From positions 267,837 through 331,836 of the forward strand of contig JBDSSF010000001.1 of NCBI GenBank assembly GCA_039928925.1: a stretch of DNA of 64,000 nucleotides, written 5' to 3'. A program made the position numbers and the translations under genes. Positions 459 through 61,656 of this stretch are shown in pieces. Each line of letters begins with the position of its first letter. The stretch's first letter is position 1. Origin of the DNA: Candidatus Saccharimonadales bacterium (GTDB taxonomy: Bacteria; Patescibacteriota; Saccharimonadia; Saccharimonadales; Saccharimonadaceae). The notes below the pieces were generated by a model. The model had not been told where the DNA came from. It searched no databases and was given only the letters and a program-made list of their open reading frames with translations.

Positions 459-496
459 GGAGTGAGGGGCACGCAAATTCGCGCGCCCCTCACTCC
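459..496 (-). terminator. 12-bp GC-rich hairpin just downstream of the minus-strand ORF 499..687
   Basis: GGAGTGAGGGGC-N14-GCCCCTCACTCC perfect inverted repeat; no clear U-run. Confidence 0.45.
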
Positions 497-498
497 CG

Positions 499-687
499 CT
501 ACCGCCGGCTGAGGATTGCATCGACTTCGGATATCTCCTGTGCCGTGAGCTCTCTTCCGAGTACTCTGGTGAAAGCACGAAGAACGTTACTTCGGCTCTG
601 AGCCGTCGGTCTCCTGGAATAGTTACGCACCGTCGCCACGAGTCTTCCATTGTTGAAAGCGTCTTTCACTGATGGGATGTCCGCCAC
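499..687 (-). CDS. Hypothetical 62-aa protein in a high-GC insert between rplS and rnhB
   Basis: ORF track entry; local GC visibly above flanks; followed by a strong hairpin; no recognisable domain. Confidence 0.4.
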   Translation of the reverse strand: MADIPSVKDAFNNGRLVATVRNYSRRPTAQSRSNVLRAFTRVLGRELTAQEISEVDAILSRR

Positions 688-767
688 GTTAGTACCTTAC
701 TCTAGTAGGTTCTCATGTCGATAAACATGAGTTACTGCTACCATAGCAGTATATTCATATTCTGTCA

Positions 768-1397
768 ATGAGCTACAATAGAAATATGATTTTAGGAATT
801 GACGAAGTTGGGCGCGGACCTTGGGCGGGACCTCTTGTTGTGGGAGCTGTTGTTTTAGGCGATATTCCTATCGAAGGACTCACTGACAGTAAAAAGCTAA
901 CGAAAAAGCGTCGCGAAGAACTTGATGCTATTATTCGCCGAGATGCAGCCGGCTTTGGTCTAGGATGGGTGAGTGCTGATGAACTTGATAGTATTGGACT
1001 GTCAGCCGCACTAAGGCTTGCTACCCGCCGGGCTGTTGAACAGGTCACTTCAGCCTACAGTGAGATTATTATTGATGGAACAATAAACTTTCTTGCTAAC
1101 ACAAGTAGGGCTGCTTATGTCACGACGATTCCAAAAGCTGACCTGCTCGTTCCTAGCGTCTCTGCGGCATCAATTATAGCGAAGGTGGCTCGTGATGCCT
1201 TTATGACCGACCAAGACGCTGTGTATCCCGGCTATGGCTTCAAGACTCATGTTGGGTATGGCACACCAGCACATCGCCAAGCGATAGAGAACTTAGGTGT
1301 GACTCCACTTCACCGACTATCTTTTGCGCCACTAACAAAATACCGACTAGATACACCAAATCATAAAAAGTCTAAATCATCCACGAAGTATGTATAA
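768..1397 (+). CDS. rnhB: Ribonuclease HII
   Basis: ILGIDEVGRGPWAGPLVVGAVVL and DSKKLTKKRREEL motifs typical of RNase HII. Confidence 0.9.
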   Translation: MSYNRNMILGIDEVGRGPWAGPLVVGAVVLGDIPIEGLTDSKKLTKKRREELDAIIRRDAAGFGLGWVSADELDSIGLSAALRLATRRAVEQVTSAYSEIIIDGTINFLANTSRAAYVTTIPKADLLVPSVSAASIIAKVARDAFMTDQDAVYPGYGFKTHVGYGTPAHRQAIENLGVTPLHRLSFAPLTKYRLDTPNHKKSKSSTKYV

Positions 1398-1427
1398 GTG
1401 ATCGCAGGTACCAGACTCTACTCCAAA

Positions 1428-3950
1428 TTAAAGTGCCAGTAGCGCTGATATGACACTATCACGGTCTCGTTCAATCAGCTCGACGCGACCTTCTATTTCC
1501 GAAACTCCAATTGTAATAACACGACTCAGAGCTGGAATCTCCTTCTTAGGTGTGAAGAACTCAATATACTGAGCTAGTTGTTCTCGTGTTACAAGACTAC
1601 TTGCACTGTAGCGCGGGTAGTCATCGTAGCTTTTGTCACCAGCAAATGTATCAATGACCCACTGCCAGTTGTCTCGAATCCACTGCCAAGCGGCATCGCG
1701 ACTTTCTCTGCCACGAATGAGATACACGAACCAGCGTGCAGCATCCTGAGGCCGTATAACTAGCGGATCTTTTATTGCTTCAAGAAGTAGCAGTATTTTC
1801 TCTTTAGTTCGAGTTGATGTAATACCAAGACATATATCCTGCTGCAGTTCAGCTGACGATGATGACTTATATGTTGAAAATAGTGCATCAAATATCTTTC
1901 CATCATCATGCCGTACAACACTGCTAATAATAAGGGGTCGAAGCTCTGGGTCAAGATCGATGAGATCATTTGATTCAAATAGAGTCTTTGCTTTTTGAAG
2001 TGCATCGGGAGCTTCACCGTATAGTGTAAGCGCTAAAATCGTTGCACGAAGTTTCGAGTCTTCTTCTGATTCACCTGGTTTTGCATCCCATCCAAGTCGA
2101 GCATATTGCTCTGCCGCCATGTTTGCAGCAAATGTACGCAGCTTACTCTCAGCTATGGGGTTATCATCGACAAACTTTTTTAATTCACCAATAGCCATAC
2201 TCATAATCGTCCATACTGGTTCACTCGTTTCATTTTTATACCCACCGAGGAGGCTAATGAGCTGAATACTCGGAAGAATACCTGCTCTTGCAAGCATCGT
2301 TGATTCATCAAGCAGTTGGATACGATCAAGCATAGATAAGTTACCGGCACTCACCTCGCCGATTAATCGCTGGAGCAAATCGTCACTATAGTGAGTAATA
2401 AAATGAGCCGTATCTTGGTCGTTAAATCTGAGTGGTGTGGTGTGGTGACGCGTCACGACAACCGATCTTTCAGAAAGTATTTCTGGCATCTCGCTACAAG
2501 GAGAGGTGAGCGGAATTGGCCATAGTTTACTCGATGCTTCGTGTGGACCTACAAAGAATTGTTCCTGAGCGAGTGTTACTTGATCACCGTCCTGTGAGAC
2601 ATGGAGAACCGGATAGCCAGACTGTGAAATCCATGTATTCATAAGACCGGCAATATCTTTACCGCTAATCTTTGCTAATGCATTCCATAGGTCATCTTGA
2701 TCAGTGTTGCTGTAGGCATGTTCTTTAAAGTACAGCCCAAGACCAGTACGAAAGTCTTCTTTGCCTACGTAGTGTTCTAGCATGCGTAGGAGCCGAGCGC
2801 CTTTTGCGTAAACGATTGCACCGTCAAATAACGTACTAATCTCATCAGGATGGTTTACATCTACCTGAACAGCCTGTACACCGTCAACACTGTCTCGACG
2901 TAGGGCCATGACAACCTCACCTGATGCGAAATCAAGCCATATATTCCATTCAGGGTAAAGTGCATCAATGGCAATGTACTCCATCAGGGTTGCAAAACTT
3001 TCATTTAGCCAAAGATTATTCCACCACTTCATAGTGACAAGATTACCGAACCACTGATGAGATAGCTCATGCGCAACAACAGTTGCAATATACTGCTTAC
3101 TACTTATTGAAGTTGTCTTAGGATCTGCAAGGAGCGCAATTTCACGATAAGTAATGAGGCCCCAGTTTTCCATTGCACCAGATCCAAAATCTGGAAGTGC
3201 CACATGATCCGACTTAGGTAGCGGATAAGGGACACCGAAATACTCGTCAAAGAAATCAATCGTTCGAGTTGCAACGCCAAGAGCGAAATCAAGGCTTTCT
3301 GGTGGTTGAGCTGGTGTTGCCCAAACATTTACTTCGACGCCACTTTTCGTTGTTGCAGTCTTTTTATGCATTTCACCAACAACGAATGCGAGCAGATACG
3401 TGCTCATTTTTGGCGATGTCTTAAAAGAGGTCACAAGCTGGTCATCAGCCACAACTTGTCTCTCGACAGGCATATTTCCTAAAACTGTAATGTTTTGTTC
3501 GGTCGTGAGAGTGACGTCAAAAGTCGCCTTTGCTTCAGGTTCATCGATACACGGGAATACTTCACGGGTATGATGGCTTTCGAACTGCGTAGCTAGGAGC
3601 TCTTTTTTAACACCATTATATTCGTAGTAGCAGGGATAGAGTCCGTGCATGGGGTCGGTGATCGTACCTGAAAAACCGATAACAAGAATATGTGTTCCAC
3701 TATGGATATCTGGGTGAGTGATATGGAGCTCATCGTTGTCGCTGCTACCAAAATCTGCTTCTTTGCCATCTAGCGTAGCTGATTCAATTGCAAGATCCTT
3801 TGCATGAACGATGATAGTACCGGTACTATCGGGTGACACGCCGTGAATAGTAACTGTCCCACGGAAAGTTCGCTCAGCCCGGCCAAGCATTAATGAAAGG
3901 TCATAATGTGTTGGTGAAAATTGATCAATAAGTCGAGGTACTGTCTGCAT
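1428..3950 (-). CDS. pepN: M1-family aminopeptidase N
   Basis: GAMENWGLITYRE exopeptidase motif and HELSHQWFGNLVT...WLNESFA zinc-binding HEXXH-E motif; 840 aa. Confidence 0.9.
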   Translation of the reverse strand: MQTVPRLIDQFSPTHYDLSLMLGRAERTFRGTVTIHGVSPDSTGTIIVHAKDLAIESATLDGKEADFGSSDNDELHITHPDIHSGTHILVIGFSGTITDPMHGLYPCYYEYNGVKKELLATQFESHHTREVFPCIDEPEAKATFDVTLTTEQNITVLGNMPVERQVVADDQLVTSFKTSPKMSTYLLAFVVGEMHKKTATTKSGVEVNVWATPAQPPESLDFALGVATRTIDFFDEYFGVPYPLPKSDHVALPDFGSGAMENWGLITYREIALLADPKTTSISSKQYIATVVAHELSHQWFGNLVTMKWWNNLWLNESFATLMEYIAIDALYPEWNIWLDFASGEVVMALRRDSVDGVQAVQVDVNHPDEISTLFDGAIVYAKGARLLRMLEHYVGKEDFRTGLGLYFKEHAYSNTDQDDLWNALAKISGKDIAGLMNTWISQSGYPVLHVSQDGDQVTLAQEQFFVGPHEASSKLWPIPLTSPCSEMPEILSERSVVVTRHHTTPLRFNDQDTAHFITHYSDDLLQRLIGEVSAGNLSMLDRIQLLDESTMLARAGILPSIQLISLLGGYKNETSEPVWTIMSMAIGELKKFVDDNPIAESKLRTFAANMAAEQYARLGWDAKPGESEEDSKLRATILALTLYGEAPDALQKAKTLFESNDLIDLDPELRPLIISSVVRHDDGKIFDALFSTYKSSSSAELQQDICLGITSTRTKEKILLLLEAIKDPLVIRPQDAARWFVYLIRGRESRDAAWQWIRDNWQWVIDTFAGDKSYDDYPRYSASSLVTREQLAQYIEFFTPKKEIPALSRVITIGVSEIEGRVELIERDRDSVISALLAL

Positions 3951-9762: not shown

Positions 9763-10239
9763 CTAAATACTCTTGACCATTATTTTGATAGCCCCTAGGA
9801 GATCTTCGAGCTCCTTGATCCTTTTTCGGAGTTTTTCGACCTCGGACTCTTCTCTTTTAGGCATGGTTTCATGGGTTTCAACTGATATTGAACCAAACTT
9901 CACTGCAATATTGATTGCTCCAGAAAGTTCGTTTCGTATCAGTGTCCTGAAGCTAAACGACTGCGAGCGCACATATGCATCTCGCCTGTCTGAAAGAATT
10001 CCATAGCTCTCATTCATGTCCACGTTCAGGGCGTTATTGATGGCGTACGCGCTCTTCGCACCGGTCTTCGCAAGTTCGATACATATCGACTTTAACTTTT
10101 CTAAGACTTCCTGGGCAGTGTCGCAATTGAAGAGTCCACATTCCCAGCTGGAGACATCGTTGTCTCCAGCAAGTCCATTACCTCTGCAAACGCGCTGAAT
10201 GACCCTTACGCGCTCATCGATAGTCCTCTCGGAAATCAT
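9763..10239 (-). CDS. Hypothetical protein (158 aa), C-terminal coiled-coil-like tail
   Basis: ORF track entry; intermediate GC; terminator downstream; no recognisable domain. Confidence 0.5.
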   Translation of the reverse strand: MISERTIDERVRVIQRVCRGNGLAGDNDVSSWECGLFNCDTAQEVLEKLKSICIELAKTGAKSAYAINNALNVDMNESYGILSDRRDAYVRSQSFSFRTLIRNELSGAINIAVKFGSISVETHETMPKREESEVEKLRKRIKELEDLLGAIKIMVKSI

Positions 10240-10370: not shown

Positions 10371-11651
10371 ATGAATGAAATAATTTGCCCTCACTGTAAA
10401 AAAGCTTTTAAGGTTGATGAAGCAGGATTTGCTGATATTTTAAAGCAAGTTCGTGATCATGAATTTGAGAGTGCTCTTCATGAACGCGTTGAGATGTTAA
10501 AAAAAGAAAAAGAGAACGCAATTAAGCTCGCTGAAGCGAACACAAAGAATCAGTTACAAGTAGATGCGGCAAAAAAAGATGCACAAATTGCTGAACTAAA
10601 AATGCAAAAAGAAGCTGAAATCGCAAAGTTAATTGCGACGAGAAATGCTGATGTATTAGCGATTCAAGCCGCAAAGGACACTGAGCTCGCTCGACTTCAA
10701 GCTCGACTTCAAGCAGCTGAAACTGAAAAGAAACTCGAACTTAGTGAGGCTCTTAATAAAATTGAAAAAGAACGTGATCATATTGCAAATGAACTCAAAA
10801 ATAAGGACACGGAACGCCAATTGCTAGAATCATCATTAAAGGACAAATACGAAGTTGAGCTTCGATCAAAAGATCAAATGATTTCATATTATAAAGATAT
10901 GAAGGCTAAACTATCTACAAAGATGGTAGGTGAGACTCTTGAGCAGCACTGCGAAACCGAGTTTAATAAACTGCGTGCAACTGCATTTCCAAATGCCTAT
11001 TTTGAAAAAGATAATGATGCTAAAACTGGGAGTAAAGGTGACTACATCTACCGTGAAGTAGACGAGTCTAGTAATGAAATTATCTCCATCATGTTTGAAA
11101 TGAAGAACGAGGGAGATGAGACGACTACAAAGCATAAAAATGAAGATTTCCTGCGAGAGTTGGATAAAGATAGAAATGAGAAAAAATGTGAGTATGGTGT
11201 ACTCGTGACACTTCTCGAATCTGAAAGTGAACTTTACAATACTGGTATCGTCGACGTCTCCCATAAATATCCAAAGATGTATGTGATACGTCCACAGTTT
11301 TTTATACCGATCATAACGCTTCTTCGTAACGCTGCTTTGAACTCTATGAAGTATAAATCTGAGCTCGCCCTCGTTAAAGCTCAAAATGTCGATATCACTC
11401 ATTTTGAAGATAATATTAATGCGTTTAAAGAGGGATTTGCAAAGAACTATGATCTTGCAAGCCGTAAGTTTAAAACAGCTATTGATGAGATAGATAAAAC
11501 TATTGATCATCTACAAAAGACTAAAGACGCTCTATTATCATCGGAGAACAATCTTCGCCTTGCTAATAACAAAGCGGAAGATCTAACAATTAAGCGACTA
11601 ACTCGCGGTAATCCAACTATGGCTGTAAAGTTTGAAGATCTTAATAACTGA
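10371..11651 (+). CDS. DUF2130 family protein (zinc ribbon + long coiled coil + PD-(D/E)xK-like C-terminal domain; RmuC-like architecture)
   Basis: N-terminal [32 protein letters not shown] is the DUF2130 signature; ~170 aa of heptad-rich K/E/A/L sequence; GDYIY...IMFEMK nuclease-like motif. Confidence 0.8.
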
Positions 11652-11732
11652 GTAATCTGAACCCTGTTTAATTTGCCTCGTTAATGACACTGCTGCTTGC
11701 ACACCGGTCCTGTTTGTTGCTATATTGTGCGG

Positions 11733-12341
11733 ATGACAAGTGCTGACAATAACGAATCGAAACTCTTTGCTGAGCTTGAAAATAGCATGGAGACAGATCT
11801 CTCATCGTGGCGTACAGCACTCTTTGTTTTCTTTGAACAATTTTTACCACTGGTTGTTGATGAATTGGGAAATAAGTTAGGCAGACAAGTCGACTTTCAG
11901 ATTGATACGGATAGGGCTGAAGTATGCGCGATGGTTAGAGAACTTATTGTAGATCACTGGAGATTAATAGGTGATCCACCTGCTGCGCGTGCTATGGTAA
12001 CGGCTTCTGGTCGTGGAATTTTTCAAGTTTATAATGACGTTTATAATAATTTTGATCCTGAGCAAACAAGTGAGTATGCAATATTATCAGGAATATTTAT
12101 AGGTTTCGACGTCCAGGCATATGTAGATCCAGCGTATTTAGATGTAATAAGTGAAGGTGAAGAGGTTAGTCTGGACGTCCAGAGACACTACCAAAAGCCA
12201 TTTGGCCTTCATCTAGTCCTTACTGACGTTAATGTTGTAGATCAGAATACTTATGAACCGCAAGCCTTTGGAGATAAATTAATCTATTTGCCACTCCATT
12301 ATCCTGAAGTTACGCTACGTTCAATATCAGCTCACAAGTAG
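11733..12341 (+). CDS. Hypothetical protein, probable distant third member of the 8224/8937 family
   Basis: C-terminal LHLVLTDVNVV...LIYLPLHYPEVTLRS parallels SLAVTDLWLV...HVLLTLHGPGIEVRK; same TTGCAC-N18-TATATT-N6-ATG promoter geometry. Confidence 0.5.
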   Translation: MTSADNNESKLFAELENSMETDLSSWRTALFVFFEQFLPLVVDELGNKLGRQVDFQIDTDRAEVCAMVRELIVDHWRLIGDPPAARAMVTASGRGIFQVYNDVYNNFDPEQTSEYAILSGIFIGFDVQAYVDPAYLDVISEGEEVSLDVQRHYQKPFGLHLVLTDVNVVDQNTYEPQAFGDKLIYLPLHYPEVTLRSISAHK

Positions 12342-12350
12342 AGCGACGTA

Positions 12351-13337
12351 TCAATTTCGCCGAGAAGCCTTTTTCTTATAATCAGTTTCATCTTCAATTT
12401 CATGTCCAAGAATTTCTTCGATTAAGTCTTCAATCGTTACAATACCAACAATATGGTCATCACGCTCGATTGGAATTAAGTGAGTATGCGCACTTATGAA
12501 TTTACGGAACATAGTATCAAGCGCGGTCATACTTCCAACTATTTTAACGGGATGAAGTGAGAGATCATCAACTGCGATTGGATCATCAAAATCATATGCA
12601 AGTAAATCTTTAATAAGAAGTACACCATAGCAACGTGTGAGATTTGTATCGAAAATTGGTATGCGACTGCGACCTTCACGTTTAATTTTTTCAATAGTTT
12701 TTGTATCGATAATGTAATCTGGGGTTACCCAAAAAACATCGTCAATACTTGTCATAATATCTCGAACTCGTTTTTCGCTCATTTGGAGGACACTTTTAAT
12801 AATTTCAGCCTCGTCTTCATCAAGTTCACTTTCATCGGCATCGATCTGCTCATTGATAATGATGCCCAGTTCACCGCGTGAATGTAGCTCTTGCTTGTGA
12901 TTCCCAACGAGCTTATTAAGTAGTAATTCGAGCGGACGAGAAATAATATATGTTACAAAGACGAGAAACTTTAAAAATGGTGCAAAACGTGCAGTAAATG
13001 CGAGTGCATTTTTAGCAAAAAGTGCTTGTGGGATGACTTCACCAAATATGACAATAAGTAGCGTGCTCACAATTCCGGCGATAAGACCATGAAAATGATC
13101 ATCGAGCACAAGAGATGTAGTCGAGATAACGGCCACGTTGGCAAGCAGGATGCTTGATAGCGTCAGGTGACTTTTACGACGAAGAGGGAGGACACGCTTA
13201 GCGCTTACGTCACCTAGTTTCGCTTTTCGCTTTAGGTCACCAAGTGATAAAGCCATGAGTGATATGTTGAGACCAGAGCAGAGCGCCGATATCGTAATAA
13301 GCGCTAATATTTCAAAAATAAGAATGAGGATACTCAT
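12351..13337 (-). CDS. CNNM/DUF21 transmembrane domain + CBS-pair protein (hemolysin/CorB-like, no CorC_HlyC domain)
   Basis: N-terminal DUF21 pattern (ALCSGLNISLMALS, multiple TM helices) followed by a CBS-type region (VRDIMTSIDDVFWV..., IVGIVTIEDLIEEILG). Confidence 0.85.
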   Translation of the reverse strand: MSILILIFEILALITISALCSGLNISLMALSLGDLKRKAKLGDVSAKRVLPLRRKSHLTLSSILLANVAVISTTSLVLDDHFHGLIAGIVSTLLIVIFGEVIPQALFAKNALAFTARFAPFLKFLVFVTYIISRPLELLLNKLVGNHKQELHSRGELGIIINEQIDADESELDEDEAEIIKSVLQMSEKRVRDIMTSIDDVFWVTPDYIIDTKTIEKIKREGRSRIPIFDTNLTRCYGVLLIKDLLAYDFDDPIAVDDLSLHPVKIVGSMTALDTMFRKFISAHTHLIPIERDDHIVGIVTIEDLIEEILGHEIEDETDYKKKASRRN

Positions 13338-13363
13338 GTAACTGAATAGGAATTATATAGTTG

Positions 13364-13837
13364 TTAGTCTTGTTTGTATAGACTTATTCTTGTTGATGAA
13401 GCGCTTGATTGTCGAACAACACAGACAGGCTCGAAGCCTTCGCTATCTTCTATTTCTGGCGACGCACAAACGATAACACCGAGGTATTGCCCACTTGGTA
13501 GTGTTCTTTGAAATACAACCGGACCAGCGCATTTAACAGCGTATTCACCCATCTGTTTCTTTATACTGATTATTTCAGCGTTAGTTTCCTCAATAGATTC
13601 ACCAAGCTCCCCGCGTAGTCGATGACTTATTTCATTAATTGATGAATCATCATCAGGTTCAGCCGACTTCCCGTGTTCTTCTTCGAAAATGATTTTTGCT
13701 TGCTGTTCGGGTTGATTGCCCATGCATGTCATGATATTTTCATCATTTTCTGTCTCAAGATCGGCAATTTCAATCATTGCGTTGTGCTGCACTGGACATG
13801 CCGCACAAACACGGGGGTTCATTAATTCCATAATCAC
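13364..13837 (-). CDS. Hypothetical acidic protein (157 aa)
   Basis: ORF track entry only; same strand and directly upstream of the CNNM gene. Confidence 0.4.
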   Translation of the reverse strand: MIMELMNPRVCAACPVQHNAMIEIADLETENDENIMTCMGNQPEQQAKIIFEEEHGKSAEPDDDSSINEISHRLRGELGESIEETNAEIISIKKQMGEYAVKCAGPVVFQRTLPSGQYLGVIVCASPEIEDSEGFEPVCVVRQSSASSTRISLYKQD

Positions 13838-13970
13838 ATATTTATATCATATTTACTGATCATTCTCAACTTGCAGATGAATTTATGTGCTAAATATTCT
13901 TTCCGTCCAAGGTAGTATTAAGACGAGCTAGGTAAAGTGACTAAAGAACACATATGAAAGGAGGGCATGA

Positions 13971-14234
13971 ATGAATAAAGTACAAAGACTAATTCTAGGA
14001 TCGGCCAGTATTGGAATATTTAGTGTATCAAGCATCAGTGCTATGGCAGCGCTTGCTGCAAGTACAGTGACATCCTCTACTGGGAGGACATCGAAAATAG
14101 TTGAATCGGAGGCTGTAAATACGACGAATACGATCGATGCTTATAGTGACGATACTAGTGAGGAAACAATCGCTATGGATATAACAGGCATAAGATCACT
14201 AAGTGATAGTCGGCAGAAAGAGGAATACAGCTAA
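13971..14234 (+). CDS. Small secreted hypothetical protein (87 aa)
   Basis: Strong SD (AAGGAGGgcatgaATG); signal-peptide-like N-terminus ending AMAALAAS. Confidence 0.5.
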   Translation: MNKVQRLILGSASIGIFSVSSISAMAALAASTVTSSTGRTSKIVESEAVNTTNTIDAYSDDTSEETIAMDITGIRSLSDSRQKEEYS

Positions 14235-14283
14235 CCAGTTATGGTTTTTATTTTTATTGAAATGCAGTAGGATTGAAAATACT

Positions 14284-14697
14284 ATGGGCATACAAGGCGG
14301 AGAACTCACTACACTAGCTGCATATAATAGACAGCTAGAACAGCGTATTAAAGAACAGGACATTAACAACGTTGATGTCTATAGCGCCATGCTACGACTT
14401 ACAAGTAAAAAGTATGAGGCGCTGAGGCTACCTGTAATGTTAGATAATATTACAGCTCGACCAAGCGGTGTCTATGTCGTAAGCCTCTGCATGCTCGATG
14501 AACATTTTAAGAAAATGCTGACAACAGGGGGCATGATGATTGATGGTATGTGGATGCCAGCAAGAGATGACCCTTTTAAATTTGAACGTCCAATAAACGG
14601 TAGAGCGGTTGAAGGATACCTTACGGACTATTCGGATGGCGTTGATATAAGTGAACTTATGAATAAAGAACTGATTTCTGCTTCAGTAACTGAATGA
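14284..14697 (+). CDS. Hypothetical protein (137 aa from internal ATG)
   Basis: ORF 14203..14697; I prefer ATG 14284 because it avoids overlap with 13971..14234; no domain recognised. Confidence 0.4.
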   Translation: MGIQGGELTTLAAYNRQLEQRIKEQDINNVDVYSAMLRLTSKKYEALRLPVMLDNITARPSGVYVVSLCMLDEHFKKMLTTGGMMIDGMWMPARDDPFKFERPINGRAVEGYLTDYSDGVDISELMNKELISASVTE

Positions 14698-14849
14698 TGA
14701 ATTGCTATAATACTATAATTATGTTATAGTTTTATCATAATCTAAACCTTTTTTGCATAGAATTGCTCGTTTACAATAATTGTCATTTTATATCCACTCA
14801 TCAAGTGGACCACATACTTTTGTGGAAGCGACTACAGATAGGAAATCAC

Positions 14850-15803
14850 ATGACTTGGTGGAATCGTCGCAAGACGGTACCCGAAGCAACACCCGTTTTT
14901 GCCACCGCGCAGCCAATGCCGTGCAAGACCATGGTGACGGGGCCGATGCAGATCAGGCGCTCTGTGCAGTACGGATACGATACCGGCAAGCCAGCCGTTG
15001 ATCTTTCCAAGCACGCTCCAGAAACCGTCCAGCTTGTGAAGGGCCCGTACTACGCGGCTCAAGCGGCACTGAAGGCGGTAGGACTCTTCGGTGTCCGAAT
15101 CAAGATCATCGTGATGGTCGATGGTTCGGGCTCGATGAAAGGGGCCTACGCGGAGCAGGATGTGCAGAAGATGCTCAATAGGGCACTCGGGTTCGCTCTG
15201 AACCTGGACCCGAGCAAATCCATCTCTGTATTCACATACGGCACAAGTGTTAGCCGTCCGGTTCTCATCGAACTCTCGAACTACAGCAGTGCGGGCACCC
15301 TGATCAAACCTGACTTTGGGTGCACAAACATGGCACTCGGGTTCGAGCAGGCTCTCGATATCGCTCGCAATTCCGAAATCCGGCTACCGACCATGGTGAT
15401 CAATATCACCGACGGTGATCCCAACGATGGGGTCAGTAAGATCATGGCTCAAAAGGCCATGACTCGCTCCGTAGTAAGTTCGTCATGCGAACCAATTCAG
15501 GTCAAGAACTTGGCTGTGAAGAGTGTTCCGTATCTCGAAACGATCGACGATCTACAGAGTTGGTACGAGGTTCGTAAGGACAACAGTGGAAACACAGTCC
15601 ATGATCATGAGGGTCACGTCATCCTCGACTACAATCCGAAAGGAGTACGACTGATCGACAACGTTGATTCACAGAAGGTCAGTCCTGGGGACTCGGACCA
15701 GAGATGGGCCGAAGCATTTGCCGGCGAGGTGCGTGACTGGCTCGATGCTAGTGCACAGGTTGGTTTGATCACTGGAGTTCCAGGGATCGACCGTCGCTAC
15801 TGA
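14850..15803 (+). CDS. von Willebrand factor A (vWA) domain protein, TerY-like, high-GC
   Basis: MIDAS motif VMVDGSGSM, later GCTNM and INITDGDPNDG; GC content jumps exactly at ATG 14850, while upstream sequence is AT-rich. Confidence 0.8.
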   Translation: MTWWNRRKTVPEATPVFATAQPMPCKTMVTGPMQIRRSVQYGYDTGKPAVDLSKHAPETVQLVKGPYYAAQAALKAVGLFGVRIKIIVMVDGSGSMKGAYAEQDVQKMLNRALGFALNLDPSKSISVFTYGTSVSRPVLIELSNYSSAGTLIKPDFGCTNMALGFEQALDIARNSEIRLPTMVINITDGDPNDGVSKIMAQKAMTRSVVSSSCEPIQVKNLAVKSVPYLETIDDLQSWYEVRKDNSGNTVHDHEGHVILDYNPKGVRLIDNVDSQKVSPGDSDQRWAEAFAGEVRDWLDASAQVGLITGVPGIDRRY

Positions 15804-15825
15804 TCGACATCTGTACGTCGCTGAC

Positions 15826-15858
15826 GATACACCCGGAGAAACGCTCTTCGGGTGTATC
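15826..15858 (+). terminator. Hairpin after the vWA gene
   Basis: GATACACCCG-N13-CGGGTGTATC. Confidence 0.5.
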
Positions 15859-16013
15859 GAATGCAACATTTTTATGATTGGATATAAGATGATATTTGAG
15901 CAAATTGATATATAACATACTTTAAAATACTATTGATCATAAAGCATAAATATGATATTATACTAATTATTGAAACAATAGTTTCATGTAGCCAAGTACA
16001 GAAAGAAGACGTC

Positions 16014-16634
16014 ATGTCTCTCTCGCTCATCAAGGGAACGCCCGCCGAGCCGCTCGTCAACCCCAACGGACACGCCGTCAGCAAGCTGACCGTCGGTGTC
16101 GGCTGGGACAAGTCGTCCGGCGGCAAGAAGGGCTTCGCAGGAATGCTCAGCCGTGCGAAAGGGATCGATCTCGATCTCGCCGGTCTGGTGTACGACAACA
16201 CCGGGTCGGGCGTACGAGTCTGCGGCTTCGACACCCCTGATCTCTTCGGCGGCGGCATGCACCACACTGGTGACAACAAGACCGGAAAGGGCGACGGAAT
16301 CGACGAGTCGATGGAAATCGATCTCGACCGACTGCCGCCCAACATCACCGGGATCGTCGTCACCCTGAACGCCTTCAAGAAGGGTGTGTCGTTCGCGAAC
16401 ATCGCCGGCGCCGACTGCTTCTTCTCCGAGAACTTCGGGAAGGATCTGTTCGGCCTCGGCCAGTTCGCCGTCCCGATCGACGATGCGACCAAGAACACCA
16501 TCTTCATGGCGCGCATCCTGCGCGACGCGACGAGTGGTGGTTGGACGATCAAGGTCGTCAATGCCATGGGCTCAGCGATCAACGGTGACCCGCGTCAGCT
16601 CCTCAGCGTCGGAAAGGCCTACCTGACGGTCTGA
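16014..16634 (+). CDS. terD: TerD-family (tellurium-resistance/Ca-binding TerD domain) protein, high-GC
   Basis: MSLSLIKG..., KLTVGVGWD, GIDLDLAGLVYD, HTGDNKTGKGDGIDESMEIDLDRLPPNITGIVVTLN match the TerD-domain pattern; G/C strongly preferred in third codon positions. Confidence 0.85.
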   Translation: MSLSLIKGTPAEPLVNPNGHAVSKLTVGVGWDKSSGGKKGFAGMLSRAKGIDLDLAGLVYDNTGSGVRVCGFDTPDLFGGGMHHTGDNKTGKGDGIDESMEIDLDRLPPNITGIVVTLNAFKKGVSFANIAGADCFFSENFGKDLFGLGQFAVPIDDATKNTIFMARILRDATSGGWTIKVVNAMGSAINGDPRQLLSVGKAYLTV

Positions 16635-16698
16635 CCGCTTCGCTAAGCGAGCAACGAGTCACCGCCTAGAAAACGAAAACTCAATCTGAAAGGCTACA

Positions 16699-16722
16699 CG
16701 GCCATCCCTTCTGGGATGGCCG
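16699..16722 (+). terminator. Terminator hairpin after terD
   Basis: CGGCCATCCC-TTCT-GGGATGGCCG followed by CTTTCAATTTC. Confidence 0.55.
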
Positions 16723-16755
16723 CTTTCAATTTCAGAAATAAGATAGATCTTTAAT

Positions 16756-17437: not shown

Positions 17438-17466
17438 AAGGCCACTCGAAACTATCGAGTGGCCTT
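17438..17466. terminator. Bidirectional terminator hairpin between convergent genes
   Basis: AAGGCCACTCGA-AACTA-TCGAGTGGCCTT, 12-bp perfect stem. Confidence 0.6.
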
Positions 17467-17491
17467 CGCCTTTTCTGCCTTGTTCTCCGCA

Positions 17492-17887
17492 TCAGTCGAT
17501 TTCGAGACTTTCAAGAAACATCTCGACAGTTAACTGGAATGCCTGGTGTGCTCGGACCCACGGGAAACATGAAGCAACCATGAGGTAGTGGTTGACGAGC
17601 GCCGGCCCTCGTTCGTACTCGTCAGCTCGTTGGAGACAGCGAATGAGATACTCTTCGCTGTCATCCTGCATGTTTTTCCGTAGCGTGATAAACCTCTTGT
17701 CACGCACGCTGACACTCGCAGCATCAGCTACAGTGTCAATGAATGGCATCATGTAGCATGACTGAATGGCTAATACGGACATAGCCATCCACGAGTTCTG
17801 AGCTGGAATCAATACCGGTGCGGGCCTTGGTTCCGATGGATCTTTGTAGCCGTCTGGGTACCACAGCCCTTCTTTGTAATGAACCAC
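17492..17887 (-). CDS. Hypothetical 131-aa protein, high-GC cassette
   Basis: ORF track entry; GC visibly higher than flanks; hairpin directly downstream; no domain recognised. Confidence 0.5.
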   Translation of the reverse strand: MVHYKEGLWYPDGYKDPSEPRPAPVLIPAQNSWMAMSVLAIQSCYMMPFIDTVADAASVSVRDKRFITLRKNMQDDSEEYLIRCLQRADEYERGPALVNHYLMVASCFPWVRAHQAFQLTVEMFLESLEID

Positions 17888-17947
17888 GACTTCTCCTTCG
17901 GGTAGGCATGAAAAGACGATAACTAGTATAATACAAGTATTTATTTA

Positions 17948-18733
17948 TTATGTCAAACGTACACTAAGACCTAGCCCGCCGTAAACTTTACATATAAAAA
18001 CTGGTATTTCTGGCGTGCTCATTTCGGTGCTAAATGCATAGCCCAACTCATTAAAATGCCAGAGATTTTTAGTAGACTCAATCCGATTACGGATGAGCCA
18101 ACTTGCAAAAGCACCTCGCGCAACTTTGGCATGAACTACAACAAACTTAGGCTCATTTGTTTTTGGATCAATAGTTAGAAATCTTGGTGATATGATATCT
18201 GCACCTTTAAGATGCGGCAAAACTACTTTGGTATATTCAGCGGCTGAAAGATTGATGATCGGAACATCACTTGGTAGTATTTTAGCTATGCTATCTCCCC
18301 AGTATGTATAGAGATTTTTGTATCGCTCATCACTTAATCGATAGCCCATTTCTAGTCGGTACGGCATGATGCTGTCTAACGCACGCAGTACCCCGTAGAG
18401 TCCAGATAAAATATAAAGATGATCATTTGCATACCGTCGATCATTATCAGTAAATAACTGGGATTGCAGTCCGCTATAAATGTCTCCCAAAAAAGCATCA
18501 ATAGCAGGTAGTTGCTCATGCGGATTAGTGTTCCATGATCTCATCATAGTCTGTGTAGTTGTAGCCATAGGAGACGAAAGTTGCATCGGCTTCATTAGTT
18601 GATCTGCTGAAAGAGTTGAGACAAAATTCGCTAATTCTACTGCGTTCTCGAGCAGTTGCGGTGCCTGATACGTGTTGTCGTCAGACTTTCTGCGCTGCAT
18701 TGTTTTGGATGAATGAAGCAAGATTGTTAGCAT
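17948..18733 (-). CDS. yaaA: Peroxide stress protein YaaA (UPF0246/DUF328)
   Basis: MLTILLHSSKTM, FLGDIYSGL, YILSGLYGVLRALDSIMPYRLEMG, INLSAAEY, HAKVARGAF family pattern. Confidence 0.85.
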   Translation of the reverse strand: MLTILLHSSKTMQRRKSDDNTYQAPQLLENAVELANFVSTLSADQLMKPMQLSSPMATTTQTMMRSWNTNPHEQLPAIDAFLGDIYSGLQSQLFTDNDRRYANDHLYILSGLYGVLRALDSIMPYRLEMGYRLSDERYKNLYTYWGDSIAKILPSDVPIINLSAAEYTKVVLPHLKGADIISPRFLTIDPKTNEPKFVVVHAKVARGAFASWLIRNRIESTKNLWHFNELGYAFSTEMSTPEIPVFICKVYGGLGLSVRLT

Positions 18734-22483: not shown

Positions 22484-22620
22484 GAATGTAGTATATCAGG
22501 TACTTAGTATCACTTGGTAAGACGAACATATTCATATAATTGACTTATGAGCAACAAGAAAGTATATTGCTTTTAGGTATGACGTGCCCAACGTCATGCA
22601 CGAGGCCCTAGGAGGATATT

Positions 22621-22995
22621 GTGTGTAAGGTTTGTGACAGAATTGGCCAGCCGCACTTCATCACCGAAGTTGCGGGCGATGAAGAAGTTGTCTGGTACCC
22701 TGAAGGTACAGTTGCCGATGATGGCACGATGACGAGGAACGAATGGATCCTCAAGTGCCCCGAGCCTGGTGAGCTGAAACAGCTTTACGACGCGCTTATC
22801 TACGTCGGTGGACTGGTGATATCGGAAGATGAGATCAGGTTCGATATCAAGCTTGATGATCTTGGGCAATTCCCGCCCCGCATCACTGAGCTTGCGATGC
22901 TGATCATGGACGTTCCGAGGATCAAGCGGGATTTTGCCGAAGTTGCTCGAAGCAATAAGGACAAGTTCCGAATCGTCGGCGGCTCATCCAACTAG
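22621..22995 (+). CDS. Hypothetical 124-aa protein, high-GC cassette (GTG start)
   Basis: AGGAGG 7 nt upstream of the GTG; TTGACT-N17-TATATT promoter at 22541-22569; hairpin downstream. Confidence 0.55.
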   Translation: MCKVCDRIGQPHFITEVAGDEEVVWYPEGTVADDGTMTRNEWILKCPEPGELKQLYDALIYVGGLVISEDEIRFDIKLDDLGQFPPRITELAMLIMDVPRIKRDFAEVARSNKDKFRIVGGSSN

Positions 22996-23003
22996 GGCCT
23001 CAA

Positions 23004-23037
23004 GGCCACTCCTCGGTCCTCGCGACCAGGAGTGGCC
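23004..23037 (+). terminator. Hairpin after 22621..22995
   Basis: GGCCACTCCT-N14-AGGAGTGGCC. Confidence 0.6.
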
Positions 23038-23111
23038 AAGAGCCAAGATATTATTGTAAAATACGCTCATGCTATTGACGCCCTACTGGTTGTCAGGCGT
23101 ATACTAAAGAA

Positions 23112-37618: not shown

Positions 37619-37773
37619 GCGTTTTTTTTATGACTCAAAATAATCCCTCGAAATTTCGAGGGATTACAGACTTATGACGTATCCAAAGTCGTCGATAACA
37701 TCAACGCATTTGGATACGAGAGGCGGGGGCCATCTCGCACCACCAAGAGCCAGGTATCGCTCAGGTCGTCGGC

Positions 37774-38076
37774 CTACTTGTAGGATGTGACTCTGACGGT
37801 GAGATCTTCCAGCCTGTAGAGGCTCAGCTTCGTGTTGCCCTGTCGGGTCACCACGACCGCTTTAGCTCTGCGCCAGGAGCCAAACCACCAGTACTTTTCG
37901 TAGATCTCGAAGGTGATCGACTCACCGTTAGGGAAGACGTTGTCATCGAGAACGACGAACTCCTCTTCGAGGAGATCTCCCTGATGATGGAACTTGATGA
38001 CATCGACCATCGGAAATGCTTCTCTGATCGTGTAGCAGCTGGACTGCCCCGATCGGACGAGCTTGTAACCGAACAT
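37774..38076 (-). CDS. Hypothetical 100-aa protein, high-GC cassette
   Basis: ORF track entry; GAGGCGGGAGA upstream of the ATG; GC above flanks; hairpins at 37643-37666 and 37679-37719 downstream. Confidence 0.5.
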   Translation of the reverse strand: MFGYKLVRSGQSSCYTIREAFPMVDVIKFHHQGDLLEEEFVVLDDNVFPNGESITFEIYEKYWWFGSWRRAKAVVVTRQGNTKLSLYRLEDLTVRVTSYK

Positions 38077-38314
38077 ACGATCTCCCGCCTCTAAAGTCCT
38101 GCAGTTAGCAGGTAGTATGTATTAAACCACAGAATTATTAAGTTAGCAAAAGTAGTATATAAAAAGCAGCCCCCAAGATTTCTCTTAGGGGTGCGATCAT
38201 AACGTAGGACTGTTATAGATCTATAGTAGCATCAACATCTAAAAAATACAAGTGTGGCTCCATCAAAGTGGCGTGATGATGATAAAAATAGATTACATTT
38301 ATATTTTACTTGAA

Positions 38315-47608: not shown

Positions 47609-47762
47609 TAGGTTCTAATGCTTCGCTATATTATGTATTTGAATATGGAACCTAGCAGCCAAGCTGGAACGGGGGTGGGTAGATCAAACTGTAATGTCTA
47701 TACCAACACCTGTGAATTGATGATGTCGTTGTGAATGCAGGTTACAACTTCTTGCACGGTGC

Positions 47763-52555: not shown

Positions 52556-52584
52556 TTGACATATAAATACTAAAATTATATAAT
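52556..52584 (+). promoter_or_regulatory. Consensus sigma70-type promoter of the high-GC ORF 52591..52965
   Basis: TTGACA-N17-TATAAT, then 6 nt, then ATG. Confidence 0.55.
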
Positions 52585-52590
52585 CCCGCT

Positions 52591-52965
52591 ATGGTCAATA
52601 ACCTGAGCGCACTTCTGGCGCACACGATGTCCTTGTCCGATTCGAGCGTTGCCCAGGAAAGGGGCAGCAGGTATGGAGCTTTCGGTTTTGCTTCGTCGAC
52701 GATTGCAGTTCTTGTAACCATCTTCGTGGCACTTGTCGTAGCGTCTGTCATTTTGGCAACGGTGACCGACTTGGTGTTCACGGCGTGCTTCGTGGTCATC
52801 GCCACCATCGTGATCGAAATGATGCTGCTGGTGACATGGTGGACTTCGTTTTCATGGTCATCGAAGGGCGATGGAGGCACTGGCGTCGTCGTCGGAAGTA
52901 TCATTGCCATCGTCGCCACGGGCATCGGTGTGTGTTACTTCATCGAAGAAGTCAGGGACAAGTAG
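52591..52965 (+). CDS. Hypothetical multi-pass membrane protein (124 aa), high-GC cassette
   Basis: Three to four hydrophobic helices; perfect promoter upstream; hairpin TCTCCAGGAA-N27-TTCCTGGAGG at 52984-53030. Confidence 0.55.
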   Translation: MVNNLSALLAHTMSLSDSSVAQERGSRYGAFGFASSTIAVLVTIFVALVVASVILATVTDLVFTACFVVIATIVIEMMLLVTWWTSFSWSSKGDGGTGVVVGSIIAIVATGIGVCYFIEEVRDK

Positions 52966-53133
52966 CCCTTGTTGCCGGCCTAGTCTCCAGGAACAGTAGA
53001 GTGAGCAACAGCTCCTTCTCTTCCTGGAGGCGATATGTTCTCAGTAGCTGTAAGCTATTCTGATGAGTCCAAGAGGACGAAAGAACATACATCTATAGAT
53101 TATATATAGCAAAGATGGTATAATAAGTATATT

Positions 53134-60300: not shown

Positions 60301-61168
60301 AGCGTTTATGACTGAACTTGCAGGAACAGTAGATGTTTGGGAAGATGGCAAAAAATATATTGTCCAAGTCACTCCATCTGTTGGTCACGTCGAACGTATC
60401 CCACTTGGTGGCCGTACGGTGACTGTTAAAGCCGGTAGCAACGTCAAGGTTGGTGATGTGCTTGCAACTGGTGAAAGCGAAAGCAAGCCACTTGTTGCAC
60501 CATTCGACGGAGTCGTTGAAGTTGCGGAAAATACATTAGTTCTCGCTGCTAACGCTGGCGCGCCTGTTCGTTACGAAGTGCCAGGCACAACTCAGCTTGT
60601 TGTTAAAGCTAACGACCAAGTTGAAGCAGGTGATCGTCTAACGATAGGTTCGCTCAACCTACACGACCTCATGCGTCTTAAAGGAACTGAGGCAACTCAG
60701 CGCTATATCATCAACGAAGTGCTTCGTATTTACGCAGCACAGGGACAAGATGTTGCAGATAAGCACCTTGAGATCATCGTTCGACAGATGTTTAGTCGTG
60801 TTCAGATCGAAGATCCAGGTGACAGCGCATTTGTAACTGGCGACATTGTCAGTAAAGCATCTGTCGTTGAAGCGAACGCGAAACTTGTCGAAGAAGGTAT
60901 GACTGAACTAGTTGGCTACACTCAACTGCTTCTTGGTATTACTAAGGTGTCAATCTGGAGCGATAGCTGGCTATCAGCTGCATCATTCCAGGATACGACT
61001 CGTGTATTAATCAACGCTGCCGTCAGTGGCCGCGCTGACCGACTCCATGGCCTAAAGGAGAATGTGATCATTGGTCGCAAGATCCCAGTTGGTACTGGTG
61101 CTCGGGACCTCGTTGAAAACGAAGTTTCAGAGGAAGATATCGCAAACGATTTCGAACTCGCAGCCTAG
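57335..61168 (+). CDS. rpoC: DNA-directed RNA polymerase subunit beta'
   Basis: NADYDGDQMAVH catalytic motif, LLGKRVDYSGRSVIVVGP, bridge helix/trigger loop blocks. Confidence 0.95.
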   Translation: MSRVIANNGIADFDAVRLAVASPEDILKWSNGEVTKPETINYRTQKPERDGLFCERIFGPVKDINPHDNKLKGVRSREAAIDKNGELVTKSIVRRERMAHISLAAPVAHIWFMRGTPSAMSLLLGITVRNLERIAYFATYVILKSNTEKRDQFLADLEAETEAGRMAIKMRYEKEADVDGADIKELAQAQSREVEELNDSYTVKKAQLDSLIKGALMNETDYRNLPEEYEELVEVGMGGTALKALLDEIELPQLIAQLSEEVAGAKGQREKKLLKRLKVLEGMLAAGIKPNSLTLTVLPVIPPDLRPMVQLTGGRFATSDLNDLYRRVINRNNRLKKLIDLNAPEVICRNEMRMLQEAVDALVDNSSARGGRAVNATGGRRRLKSISDMLKGKQGRFRQNLLGKRVDYSGRSVIVVGPKLKINQCGLPKQMALELFKPFVISWLIRGEHAHNIRSATRLIESGDALVWDALDAVIEGKYVLLNRAPSLHRLSIQAFMPKLVEGKAIQLHPLVANGFNADYDGDQMAVHLPLSDDAQREARELMTATRNLLKPADGAPVLSIGQDVVLGNYYITYEKPSAQTAAVKAYSSVYEAEMAYDQGVLQLQSPIRVHTRGEIRNTTLGRVFFNEILPKDFPYDNGVQNKKQLKKVLAQIFNMYDAETTAQTADRMKGLAFRFATIAAVSTGMDDYISFDETAEFIAEGDAKTTLISEQFDEGLITEEERYSLTVGAWRGVDRQITEFLQQQMKNMDTSISVMVNSGARGDISNIKLASAMVGIMVDATNREIELPIRSSYKKGLSSLESFVATRGARKGLIDTALKTADSGYLTRRLVDVSQDVFTVADQPDSDDGFAIQRSESELTMIDFGNRLFGRYTAEAVGDYIKKDELITREIADAIHNDASITEVKIQSVLSTKNLRGIPTKSYGIDMATGHLVAAAQPVGVIAAQSVGEPGTQLTLRTFHAGGVAGGDITQGLPRVEELFEARSPKGQAFMTELAGTVDVWEDGKKYIVQVTPSVGHVERIPLGGRTVTVKAGSNVKVGDVLATGESESKPLVAPFDGVVEVAENTLVLAANAGAPVRYEVPGTTQLVVKANDQVEAGDRLTIGSLNLHDLMRLKGTEATQRYIINEVLRIYAAQGQDVADKHLEIIVRQMFSRVQIEDPGDSAFVTGDIVSKASVVEANAKLVEEGMTELVGYTQLLLGITKVSIWSDSWLSAASFQDTTRVLINAAVSGRADRLHGLKENVIIGRKIPVGTGARDLVENEVSEEDIANDFELAA

Positions 61169-61184
61169 TATCTGCAAGATATAA

Positions 61185-61214
61185 ACAACCCGCTCAGATG
61201 AGCGGGTTGTTTTA
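61185..61214 (+). terminator. Terminator after rpoC
   Basis: AACCCGCT-N6-AGCGGGTT followed by GTTTT. Confidence 0.7.
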
Positions 61215-61287
61215 GTATAATATATATGATATAATATTAAATGGATTAATGTAGCTACGGTGCTACGCCATACAGAGAGGTGTTTAC

Positions 61288-61572
61288 ATGACACATCCGT
61301 TTGGAGAGAAGTTGTCAACGAGTGGTGACACTCGGCCACTACCGATTACCGTCCCCGGTCGAACGCGGTACCAGCAGTATATCCACCGGAGAACCAAGCA
61401 TCTCTTCGGTGACGTGCCTGGCTTCCTGTACGAGATCAAGAACGGTCGCTATAGCCAGGCATGTGTGATCTTGGATGCACACCTCGCGTCGACGACCCGG
61501 ATCACACAACTGGACCGGAGGATTGCAGCCAGTTGGCTGCGCAAGCACCGGTCCTACTACCCCAACAACTGA
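61288..61572 (+). CDS. Hypothetical 94-aa basic protein, high-GC cassette (strand assignment tentative)
   Basis: GAGAGGTG 6 nt upstream of the ATG; a mirror ORF of equal length exists on the minus strand. Confidence 0.4.
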   Translation: MTHPFGEKLSTSGDTRPLPITVPGRTRYQQYIHRRTKHLFGDVPGFLYEIKNGRYSQACVILDAHLASTTRITQLDRRIAASWLRKHRSYYPNN

Positions 61573-61577
61573 GTCAA

Positions 61578-61656
61578 CGAAAATGAGCATGCCGAATCGG
61601 CTCGACCATTGTGGTCGCCGCATTCACGCGAGCCTTTTCGGTGGCTCATTTTTCGT
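61578..61656. other. Long nested hairpin (~24 bp in three stem segments) between convergent genes
   Basis: AACGAAAATGAGC..CCGAA..GGCTCG-loop-CGAGCC..TTCGG..GCTCATTTTTCGTT. Confidence 0.5.

Follow-up and report, generated by a model that had tools for sequence, protein, structure and literature searches.

Seven short GC-rich islands scattered through a 64,000-nt stretch of contig JBDSSF010000001.1 (below, the window), from a bacterium of the Saccharimonadales (candidate phyla radiation, CPR), are read here as recombinase-free, self-contained accessory modules that are swapped between conserved flanks and drawn from a flexible gene pool, a moron-like or minimal-mobile-element-like reading that we hold to be somewhat probable. 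The islands are named C1 to C7, and C2 is split into C2a, which encodes a von Willebrand factor A (vWA) protein, and C2b, which encodes TerD, giving eight open reading frames (ORFs). In the module as proposed, a sigma-70-type promoter would be followed by a leader, usually structured and with a Shine-Dalgarno (SD) site, an ORF rich in GC at the third codon position (GC3), and a strong GC-rich terminator hairpin. In close relatives the same slot would be empty, occupied by another module, or filled by a strongly diverged allele of the same one. DNA would enter by natural transformation with no dedicated recombinase, homologous recombination in the conserved flanking genes would exchange the intervening DNA, and new slots would arise through rare illegitimate insertion. 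The initial annotation of the window had proposed that single foreign high-GC genes are captured repeatedly and wired to native promoters; the part of that proposal describing compositionally alien, insert-like single-gene units with no adjacent mobility genes is supported by the results below.

The window has a GC content of 43.2%, and the seven segments, at 51-57%, are its strongest local GC peaks (z = 2.2-4.8 against all windows of the same length, of which 0.01-2.9% are equally high), so the GC elevation first noticed is real and stands out from the background variance. At the level of genes the split is clean: GC3 is 0.57 in the ORF of C3, 0.59 in C1, 0.62 in C4, 0.64 in the vWA gene, 0.68 in C7, 0.69 in C6, 0.74 in C5 and 0.84 in TerD, against a pooled value of 0.34 for the native genes.

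Loci for comparison were fetched with YaaA, RpoC and penicillin-binding protein anchors, and all of the syntenic ones come from metagenome-assembled genomes (MAGs) of Candidatus Saccharimonadales or Saccharibacteria; a yaaA scan, which gave no synteny, and an RpoB metagenome scan, which returned mostly distant taxa, were of little use. The nearest species representative, JBBQDN010000003.1 (loci L082 and L309; the sister genome below), has RpoB and RpoC about 96% identical to those of the window and is collinear with it at 21-37.6 kb and 50-61 kb. Synonymous sites are saturated in most genes of this pair: third-position identity is 0.41-0.47 for most, and synonymous divergence (dS, NG86 method) is undefined or above 1.3 except in rpoB and rpoC, where it is about 1.0.

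The C4 unit (22540..23042, plus strand) comprises a promoter (22540-22568, TTGACT-N17-TATATT, 10/12 matches), a leader with a stem-loop at about 22579-22597 and then an SD site, an ORF of 124 amino acids (22621-22995, +) and a hairpin (22999-23042). The sister genome carries in the same slot a 92-amino-acid ORF with a GC3 of 0.76 against a background of 0.42. DNA homology between the two stops at about 22565, at the -10 box, and restarts at about 23035, right after the hairpin, while the -35 box lies within DNA that is conserved among relatives. The two proteins are homologous (Smith-Waterman score of 106 against 25.5 +/- 4.5 for shuffles, z = 18; phmmer E = 7e-8), although BLASTP finds no match between them. 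An exhaustive HMMER search of 1.84 billion representatives returned only six C4 clusters besides this one, of which one is a spurious repeat protein; the contexts that were read (L324, L326, L327, and L329) all belong to the same clade and the same slot. Six C4 alleles are thus placed at one site, and every pair of them is 30-40% identical. The alleles of L327 and L329 are 40% identical though NusA is 98%, ClpB 99%, and p84 100% identical between these loci, and within 50 nt at the terminator, DNA that is 92-100% identical gives way to DNA of about 50% identity. Divergent alleles, near-identical flanks, and a sharp breakpoint indicate whole-allele replacement at a hypervariable locus and not clock-like divergence. 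The AlphaFold2 model of C4 is a confident alpha/beta fold (predicted local distance difference test score of 80, predicted template modelling score of 0.70) that matches nothing in PDB or BFVD. The hypervariability of the locus suggests diversifying selection, and slots such as this one may be arenas of host- or phage-driven diversification.

Next to C4 lies a non-coding block (23100-23335, +) that separates it from an 84-amino-acid gene (ATG at 23382) and is 85-100% identical in five relatives. The block comes with a TTGACG-N17-TATACT promoter of its own (about 23074-23105) and closes with a terminator; the RNAalifold consensus has 67 pairs, eight of them with compensatory changes, and Rfam gives no match at E < 0.5. 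From these features, it is a candidate for a new structured small RNA or a cis-regulatory leader.

The second line of evidence comes from C2. The C2b unit (15933..16736, +) has a TG-extended promoter (15933-15961, 9/12), a stem-loop in the 5' untranslated region (UTR), an ORF of 206 amino acids (16014-16634, +), and a terminator at 16699-16722, with extended arms at 16685-16736. The C2a unit before it (14752..15859, +) has a promoter-like site (14752-14780, 9/12), a vWA-TerF-like ORF of 317 amino acids (14850-15803, +), and a hairpin (15825-15859). The TerD ORF matches PF02342 (6.6e-15, 55.5 bits with a cut-off of 25.3) and the vWA ORF matches PF10138 (5e-12, 46.8 bits with a cut-off of 29.4) and phrog_5359 (1.5e-20), so that the early assignment of 14850-16722 to a vWA and a TerD gene is borne out; both belong to the Ter stress-response families. 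Imperfect 27-nt inverted repeats, AT-rich and 81% complementary, bracket the vWA unit just after the -10 box (14778-14804) and after the hairpin (15871-15897), and these may be due to chance in AT-rich DNA.

The nearest relatives of TerD, in loci L162, L163, L411, and L412, are 52-67% identical to the window's copy and sit in genomes of low or middle GC content; all four are lone genes with a GC3 of 0.79-0.86, AT-rich flanks, and a GC-rich hairpin at the end. The neighbourhoods clearly differ in the window, L162, and L163; the L411 locus is too short for a judgement, and L412 is perhaps syntenic with L163. Beyond the coding sequence, the window's unit is homologous to L411 in the promoter (z = 7.8), to L162 in the promoter and leader (z = 5.0), and to L163 and L412 in the 3'UTR and terminator (z = 11.6 and 13.1), while both flanks score below zero against the high-GC homolog in L164. 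This homology of promoter and terminator across contexts indicates that the unit moves as a whole module and is not wired to native promoters.

The remaining evidence concerns what occupies the slots in other genomes. The C6 unit (52556..53029, +) consists of a promoter (52556-52584, TTGACA-N17-TATAAT, 12/12), an ORF of 124 amino acids (52591-52965, +), and a hairpin (52985-53029). Its site is empty in the sister genome (L082), where 55 bp separate the clpP stop from the next gene, compared with a spacer of 598 bp in the window; no promoter and no remnant of the cassette are found there, so C6 arrives with its own consensus promoter. With TerD, this tells against the earlier notion of wiring to native promoters. 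The -10 box ends 6 nt before the ATG and there is no SD site, which implies a leaderless mRNA or a downstream start (e.g. ATG 52627). Long hydrophobic stretches, assessed by eye, suggest that the product is a small membrane protein, and no homolog was found in the fetched loci or in phages.

The C7 unit (61207..61647, +) has a promoter-like TTGTTT-N17-TATAAT (61207-61235), a 5'UTR stem-loop, an orphan ORF of 94 amino acids (61288-61572, +), and a structured 3' region (61590-61647) that includes a terminator (61630-61647). Across about 55 Saccharimonadales, the rpoC-rpsL spacer in which it sits is between 186 bp and 4.2 kb long and differs in what it holds; in about 10 it is empty (186-363 bp), and L084 has a different high-GC ORF there. 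The empty sites that had been suggested as a check thus exist for C6 and for the C7 slot. In the last 60 codons of rpoC (60989-61168), GC3 is 0.48 compared with 0.35 in the remainder, making this the sole native flank with raised GC3; the rise could mark a recombination breakpoint reaching in beside the C7 hotspot.

The C5 unit (37641..38149, minus strand) has a promoter-like TTGCTA-N17-TTTAAT (about 38121-38149), a 5'UTR stem-loop, an ORF of 100 amino acids (37774-38076, -), and two hairpins (37678-37718 and 37641-37666), the second common to rsmD. The sister genome has a divergent homolog in the equivalent neighbourhood (L309, 1405-1683; Smith-Waterman z = 12, phmmer E = 7e-4), with a GC3 of 0.60 against a background of 0.42. 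C4 and C5 are therefore found at the same or equivalent loci in sister genomes as very divergent homologs, and the claim of repeated capture fails for both.

The C3 unit (17438..17956, -) has a promoter (17956-17928, TTGACA-N17-TATTAT, 11/12), a strong SD site (GGAGAA), an orphan ORF of 131 amino acids (17492-17887, -), and a perfect 12-bp hairpin (17438-17466) that also serves a convergent upstream gene. No homolog was found in a word-indexed search of 5.8 billion proteins or in phage genomes. In L329, a different high-GC ORF lies beside yaaA in a position equivalent to that of C3. Between the homolog of 11697-12341 and yaaA, L329 (800-4300, compared with 11700-17900 in the window) has a 698-amino-acid gene and a 173-amino-acid high-GC ORF instead. 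C2 and C3 consequently sit within a larger variable region, and their neighbours are not strictly conserved. The C1 unit (459..768, -), between rplS, which the window edge truncates, and rnhB, has a GC content of 0.57, a promoter-like TTGACA-N17-TATGGT (about 740-768), 5'UTR stem-loops, and a hairpin with 19-nt arms (459-496, dG -35.9). The frame of its 62-amino-acid ORF (499-687) is uncertain, since codon periodicity is weak and an alternative minus-strand ORF (417-650) overlaps it in another frame; the only Pfam match, to DUF2267, is below threshold (E = 0.033).

Relatives have islands of their own. Small intergenic ORFs with a GC content of 0.53-0.61 lie beside NusA, clpP, rpoC, and yaaA in L327 (1302-1589), L324 (about 1280-1480), L084 (1751-2215 and 11647-12030), and L329 (3737-4258 and 6025-6540). 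As these are unrelated to the cassettes of the window, the phenomenon is clade-wide. In the window, a 158-amino-acid ORF at 9763-10239 (-; GC3 0.52, GC 0.46), which matches no family and has no homolog among the fetched loci, is perhaps an eighth island of a weaker kind. A survey of 2,347 ORFs at 148 loci adds a broader view: in low-GC genomes, 10.7% of singletons exceed the background GC3 by more than 0.15, compared with 0.2% of widely conserved ORFs, and in high-GC genomes accessory ORFs lie about 0.05 below background. Enrichment in the one and depletion in the other mark an accessory pool of intermediate composition that the genomes share.

Every unit is predicted to have a sigma-70-like promoter in AT-rich DNA. 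Those of C2a, C2b, C3, C4, and C6 were found with a scan tool and the candidates for C1, C5, and C7 with a scan of our own; matches are 12/12 for C6, 11/12 for C3, 10/12 for C4, and 9-10/12 for the others. The AT-rich, consensus-type promoters of the initial annotation, including the examples at 52556 and 22540/22541, are present in the sequence as described. Most units have a good SD site and all have a GC-rich hairpin on the 3' side, the mean folding energy of the 70 nt downstream being -27.9 kcal/mol for cassettes and -12.9 for native genes (p = 3e-5). That a hairpin follows each cassette is correct; that the hairpins are perfect is not, as most are 75-93% complementary and perfect arms occur only in C3 and in one of the two hairpins downstream of C5. 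Similarly, the units are single-gene units as first described, but the ORFs are not all orphans, since C4 and C5 have homologs, and the frame of C1 is in doubt. The 5'UTR stem-loop was rejected as a hallmark of cassettes because leaders do not differ from those of native genes (p = 0.23), and pairing between the 5' and 3' ends of the mRNA was rejected as a general feature because it is present in C4 alone. Apart from vWA and TerD, no ORF matches a Pfam, PHROG, or PADLOC family. Identity as defence systems was rejected on the PADLOC result, and identity as structured RNAs because Rfam matches nothing in the cassettes at the gathering threshold or at E < 0.5; across the whole window Rfam gives one LOOT RNA and two tRNA-Leu genes only.

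No cassette is accompanied by flanking direct repeats, target site duplications, or terminal inverted repeats, and no mobility gene adjoins any of them: the neighbours are housekeeping or hypothetical genes, the flanking core genes being rplS/rnhB, NusA, rsmD, clpP, and rpoC/rpsL, with no phage genes nearby. The borders share no motif of at least 8 nt, such as had been proposed as a check, the hairpins share no k-mer of at least 8 nt, and even 7-mers are not shared downstream. The statement that integrases, transposases, and flanking repeats are lacking holds beside the cassettes but not for the window as a whole, which contains a serine recombinase (40234-41907, 557 amino acids, PF00239 E = 9e-17) overlapping the 3' end of tRNA-Leu(CAG). 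After it comes an AT-richer stretch in which hypothetical genes are found together with the LOOT RNA (43541-43662) and a DUF4238 gene, and the region as a whole (40202-47700) is probably a classical integrated element. This recombinase, the only one found, lies 2 kb or more from every cassette, and the seven sites have no common att, which leaves no plausible link between them. Pfam (E <= 1e-8) and NCBIfam (E <= 1e-3) reveal no tyrosine integrase in the annotated gene set. A diversity-generating retroelement was also sought, and neither repeats of the template/variable type in or near the cassettes nor a reverse transcriptase domain among the annotated genes was found; variation at the cassettes covers the whole unit including the UTRs. 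Elsewhere in the window, a DUF2130 gene (10371-11651, +; GC 0.37) has relatives 60-78% identical across Patescibacteria, Bacteroidota, and Pseudomonadota, an unusually high conservation across phyla that may indicate horizontal spread and that made the gene uninformative as an anchor for fetching loci.

Saccharibacteria are naturally competent, and integration of DNA through homology arms of about 1 kb has been shown experimentally (PMC10633639). The sharp breakpoints and the discordance between alleles and genomes are consistent with a route by transformation and recombination, and both this route and the expression of the units are what we infer for the cassettes, along with a remote origin of TerD and vWA in Actinobacteria or actinophages.

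Several observations weigh against exchange from a shared pool as the whole account. No recombination event has been observed at these exact cassettes, and comparative coverage is good at C4, C6, and C7 only, with essentially none for C1, vWA, and C3. Of the loci that place TerD in different contexts, L162 is an unclassified MAG, and the pairs L163/L412 and L162/L411 may be orthologs rather than independent insertions. For C1, C3, C6, and C7, which lack homologs, the case for coding is made only by ORF length, SD sites, and codon periodicity. Composition is a further difficulty. A pool shared among Saccharimonadales predicts a GC3 of about 0.45-0.5, and both the C4 alleles, which average about 0.63, and TerD, at about 0.8, exceed this and lie above every sampled Saccharimonadales background. 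The TerD copies of L162 and L411 differ at 46 of 90 four-fold sites, 19 of the differences being C<->G (dS = 0.97), yet keep GC3 at 0.79 and 0.86 next to AT-rich UTRs that are 96% identical; with both near 0.8 at a dS of about 1, gene flow alone is insufficient.

In five of the six genomes, the GC3 of the C4 allele likewise stands 0.17-0.34 above its own background. That an ancestral import has ameliorated neutrally was rejected for TerD, as decay toward about 0.35-0.4 would require an ancestral GC3 greater than 1 for a value that is held across a dS of about 1, and it is unlikely for C4 and C5. GC-biased gene conversion or a recombination hotspot was rejected as the cause as well: native flanks, save the end of rpoC, have no rise in GC3, and GC1 and GC2 are not raised, which also argues against GC-biased local mutation. 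The force that keeps cassette GC3 high is not explained by standard amelioration or by gene flow alone. We put forward tentatively, and with some doubt, that Saccharimonadales hold recombinase-free single-gene modules whose synonymous sites are actively kept GC-rich above equilibrium. Selection on transcripts for hyper-stable or specially translated mRNAs, even mRNAs tuned to the codon usage of an actinobacterial host, could be responsible, or the modules may mostly reside in an unsampled GC-rich replicon that shuttles them between genomes.

Selection on transcripts is also central to the rival that survives best, in which the ORFs are native, vertically inherited, fast-evolving genes, GC3 is kept by selection, and patchiness results from divergence and loss. 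It accounts well for an excess that is confined to position 3, leaves the amino-acid composition native, and persists over saturated or approximately unit synonymous divergence, and for GC boundaries that coincide with the borders of transcription units with no spill-over to neighbours. The very strong 3' hairpins and a nonsynonymous divergence 3-30 times that of neighbouring genes are in keeping with it too. Selection at the level of RNA is visible in C4, where a 10-bp helix pairs the leader just upstream of the SD site (22602-22611, GAGGCCCTAG) with the region of the stop codon (22991-23000, CTAGGGCCTC). This helix is kept in four other alleles, and between the window and L326, whose proteins are about 35% identical, three pairs are changed on both sides; the pairing suggests a closed-loop or SD-masking mRNA structure. 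The divergence of C4 is, however, decoupled from that of the genome, and to produce it in situ would need a mutation rate more than 100-fold higher within about 450 bp. The TerD module occurs in at least three demonstrably different neighbourhoods, and the C6 site in the closest relative is cleanly empty, with no remnant. Vertical descent as the full explanation is therefore unlikely, while transcript selection on native genes may still correctly explain why GC3 is high, and it is compatible with horizontal exchange of modules.

Less likely again is the proposal made at the outset, in which foreign high-GC genes from an actinobacterial host or its phages were captured recently and repeatedly, by competence or phage injection, behind native promoters. 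The strong GC3 anomaly, the empty C6 site, and the C7 hotspot would all fit. Saccharibacteria in culture are competent and have Actinobacteria as their hosts (PMC10633639), and one Saccharibacterium is bound and weakly infected by a prophage of its host (PMC13578794). The identity of TerD and vWA to actinophage proteins is only about 30%, and among phages their relatives are nearly all from actinophages, those of vWA being from Streptomyces, Gordonia, and Rhodococcus phages only (26-31% identity); a TerD that is 58% identical is also found on a contig with 76% GC (L164). For these two genes, with their distant affinity to actinophages, a host-phage route is conceivable. Codon positions argue against recent capture. 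Pooled cassettes have GC1, GC2, and GC3 of 0.56, 0.42, and 0.68, native genes 0.57, 0.38, and 0.34, a GC-rich Saccharimonadales (L093) 0.60, 0.43, and 0.68, and a high-GC contig of actinobacterial type 0.77, 0.52, and 0.97. The excess is thus confined to codon position 3 and resembles GC-richer Saccharimonadales, unlike Actinobacteria; with GC1 and GC2 near native values, amino-acid composition is native-like and only synonymous sites are GC-rich. A recent actinobacterial xenolog would have a donor-like composition at all codon positions that fades with residence time, and this was not found, so neither "foreign high-GC genes" nor a decaying relic describes the ORFs. The TerD of the 76% GC contig has the composition of its own neighbours, no close relative of TerD or vWA is present in IMG/VR, and the closest relatives of TerD, reaching 66-67% identity, are lone copies in low- or mid-GC genomes whose GC3 does not decay over divergence. 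Their homologous promoters and leaders in other places leave no role for a local native promoter. C4 and C5 are positionally conserved families in the clade, and every C4 context examined is from Saccharimonadales. A phage origin of the orphans was rejected, as there is no tblastn match at E < 0.05 in 50,697 phage genomes, and C3 and C4 have no actinobacterial or actinophage homolog.

That the islands are no protein-coding cassettes (but structured non-coding RNAs, ORFs arising by chance in GC-rich DNA, or chimeras of assembly) is very improbable: GC-rich DNA does give long ORFs on both strands (C1 and C7 have two overlapping ORFs apiece), the ORFs of C1, C3, C6, and C7 lack homologs, and the transcripts have stable hairpins, but C4, C5, TerD, and vWA are conserved as proteins where DNA similarity is absent, the C4 fold is confident, GC3 is well above GC2 in C3-C7 as expected from codon periodicity, strong SD sites lie at the right distance, Rfam is silent, and the same architecture in the independent assemblies L309, L324, L327, L329, L162, L163, L411, and L412 excludes chimerism.

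The CPR accounts for a large share of bacterial diversity, and how genes are gained and exchanged in its tiny genomes is poorly known. The window suggests a flexible genome built of self-expressing single-gene modules in swap-prone slots between core genes, and exchange with no integrase fits the natural competence recently shown for the group. In low-GC Saccharimonadales, such modules and hypervariable loci of the C4 type could be flagged cheaply by their outlying GC3, and the loci so marked are candidate host- or phage-interaction genes. A gene-specific synonymous GC3 excess that survives about one substitution per site is not predicted by standard amelioration theory, and with Saccharibacteria now transformable it offers a tractable case of selection, or of another force, on synonymous GC.

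Among known systems, C2 invites comparison with Ter clusters, in which a vWA gene paired with TerD is typical. Ter proteins are common in Actinobacteria and actinophages, and the C2 ORFs fall into PF02342, PF10138, and the PHROGs that correspond to them; the window differs in having two genes only, in giving each a separate promoter and terminator, and in lacking a terABCEZ context. Integron cassettes are also compact single-ORF units followed by an imperfect inverted repeat, and many of their ORFs are orphans. The units of the window, however, bear their own promoters, are dispersed over 61 kb rather than arrayed at intI/attI/Pc, have no attC core motif in their hairpins, and have no adjoining IntI-type integrase.

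On the whole the islands seem to resemble morons or minimal mobile elements more than freshly captured host genes. Minimal mobile elements were described in Neisseria (Saunders & Snyder 2002; Snyder et al. 2007) and are taken here as in the definition passage of PMC3787668. Like them, C4, C6, and C7 have variable content between the same conserved flanks, the cassettes lack mobility genes, repeats, and target duplications, and in a naturally transformable host homologous recombination in the flanks would be the natural mechanism of exchange. The cassettes differ in that they reside in an ultrasmall CPR epibiont, are nearly all single genes with a uniform promoter-ORF-hairpin build, and are GC-richer than the genome at codon position 3 only, an excess kept over long divergence. 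The alternatives at C4 are hyperdivergent alleles of one family, not unrelated genes, and recombination is here the proposed source of their pattern.

The morons of phages, reportedly described by Hendrix, Juhala and colleagues in 2000, are single genes with their own promoter and a factor-independent terminator, set between genes that adjoin in relatives and deviating from them in nucleotide composition. The cassettes appear similarly autonomous, with a predicted promoter and intrinsic terminator each, TerD travels from promoter to terminator, and C6 and C7 lie between genes that are adjacent in relatives and have a deviant base composition. They differ from morons in lying among the housekeeping genes of a cellular chromosome and not in a phage or prophage, and in that the orphans have no phage homologs. 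Modules like morons and minimal mobile elements were known before; what is added is their CPR setting and a synonymous GC excess that is maintained.

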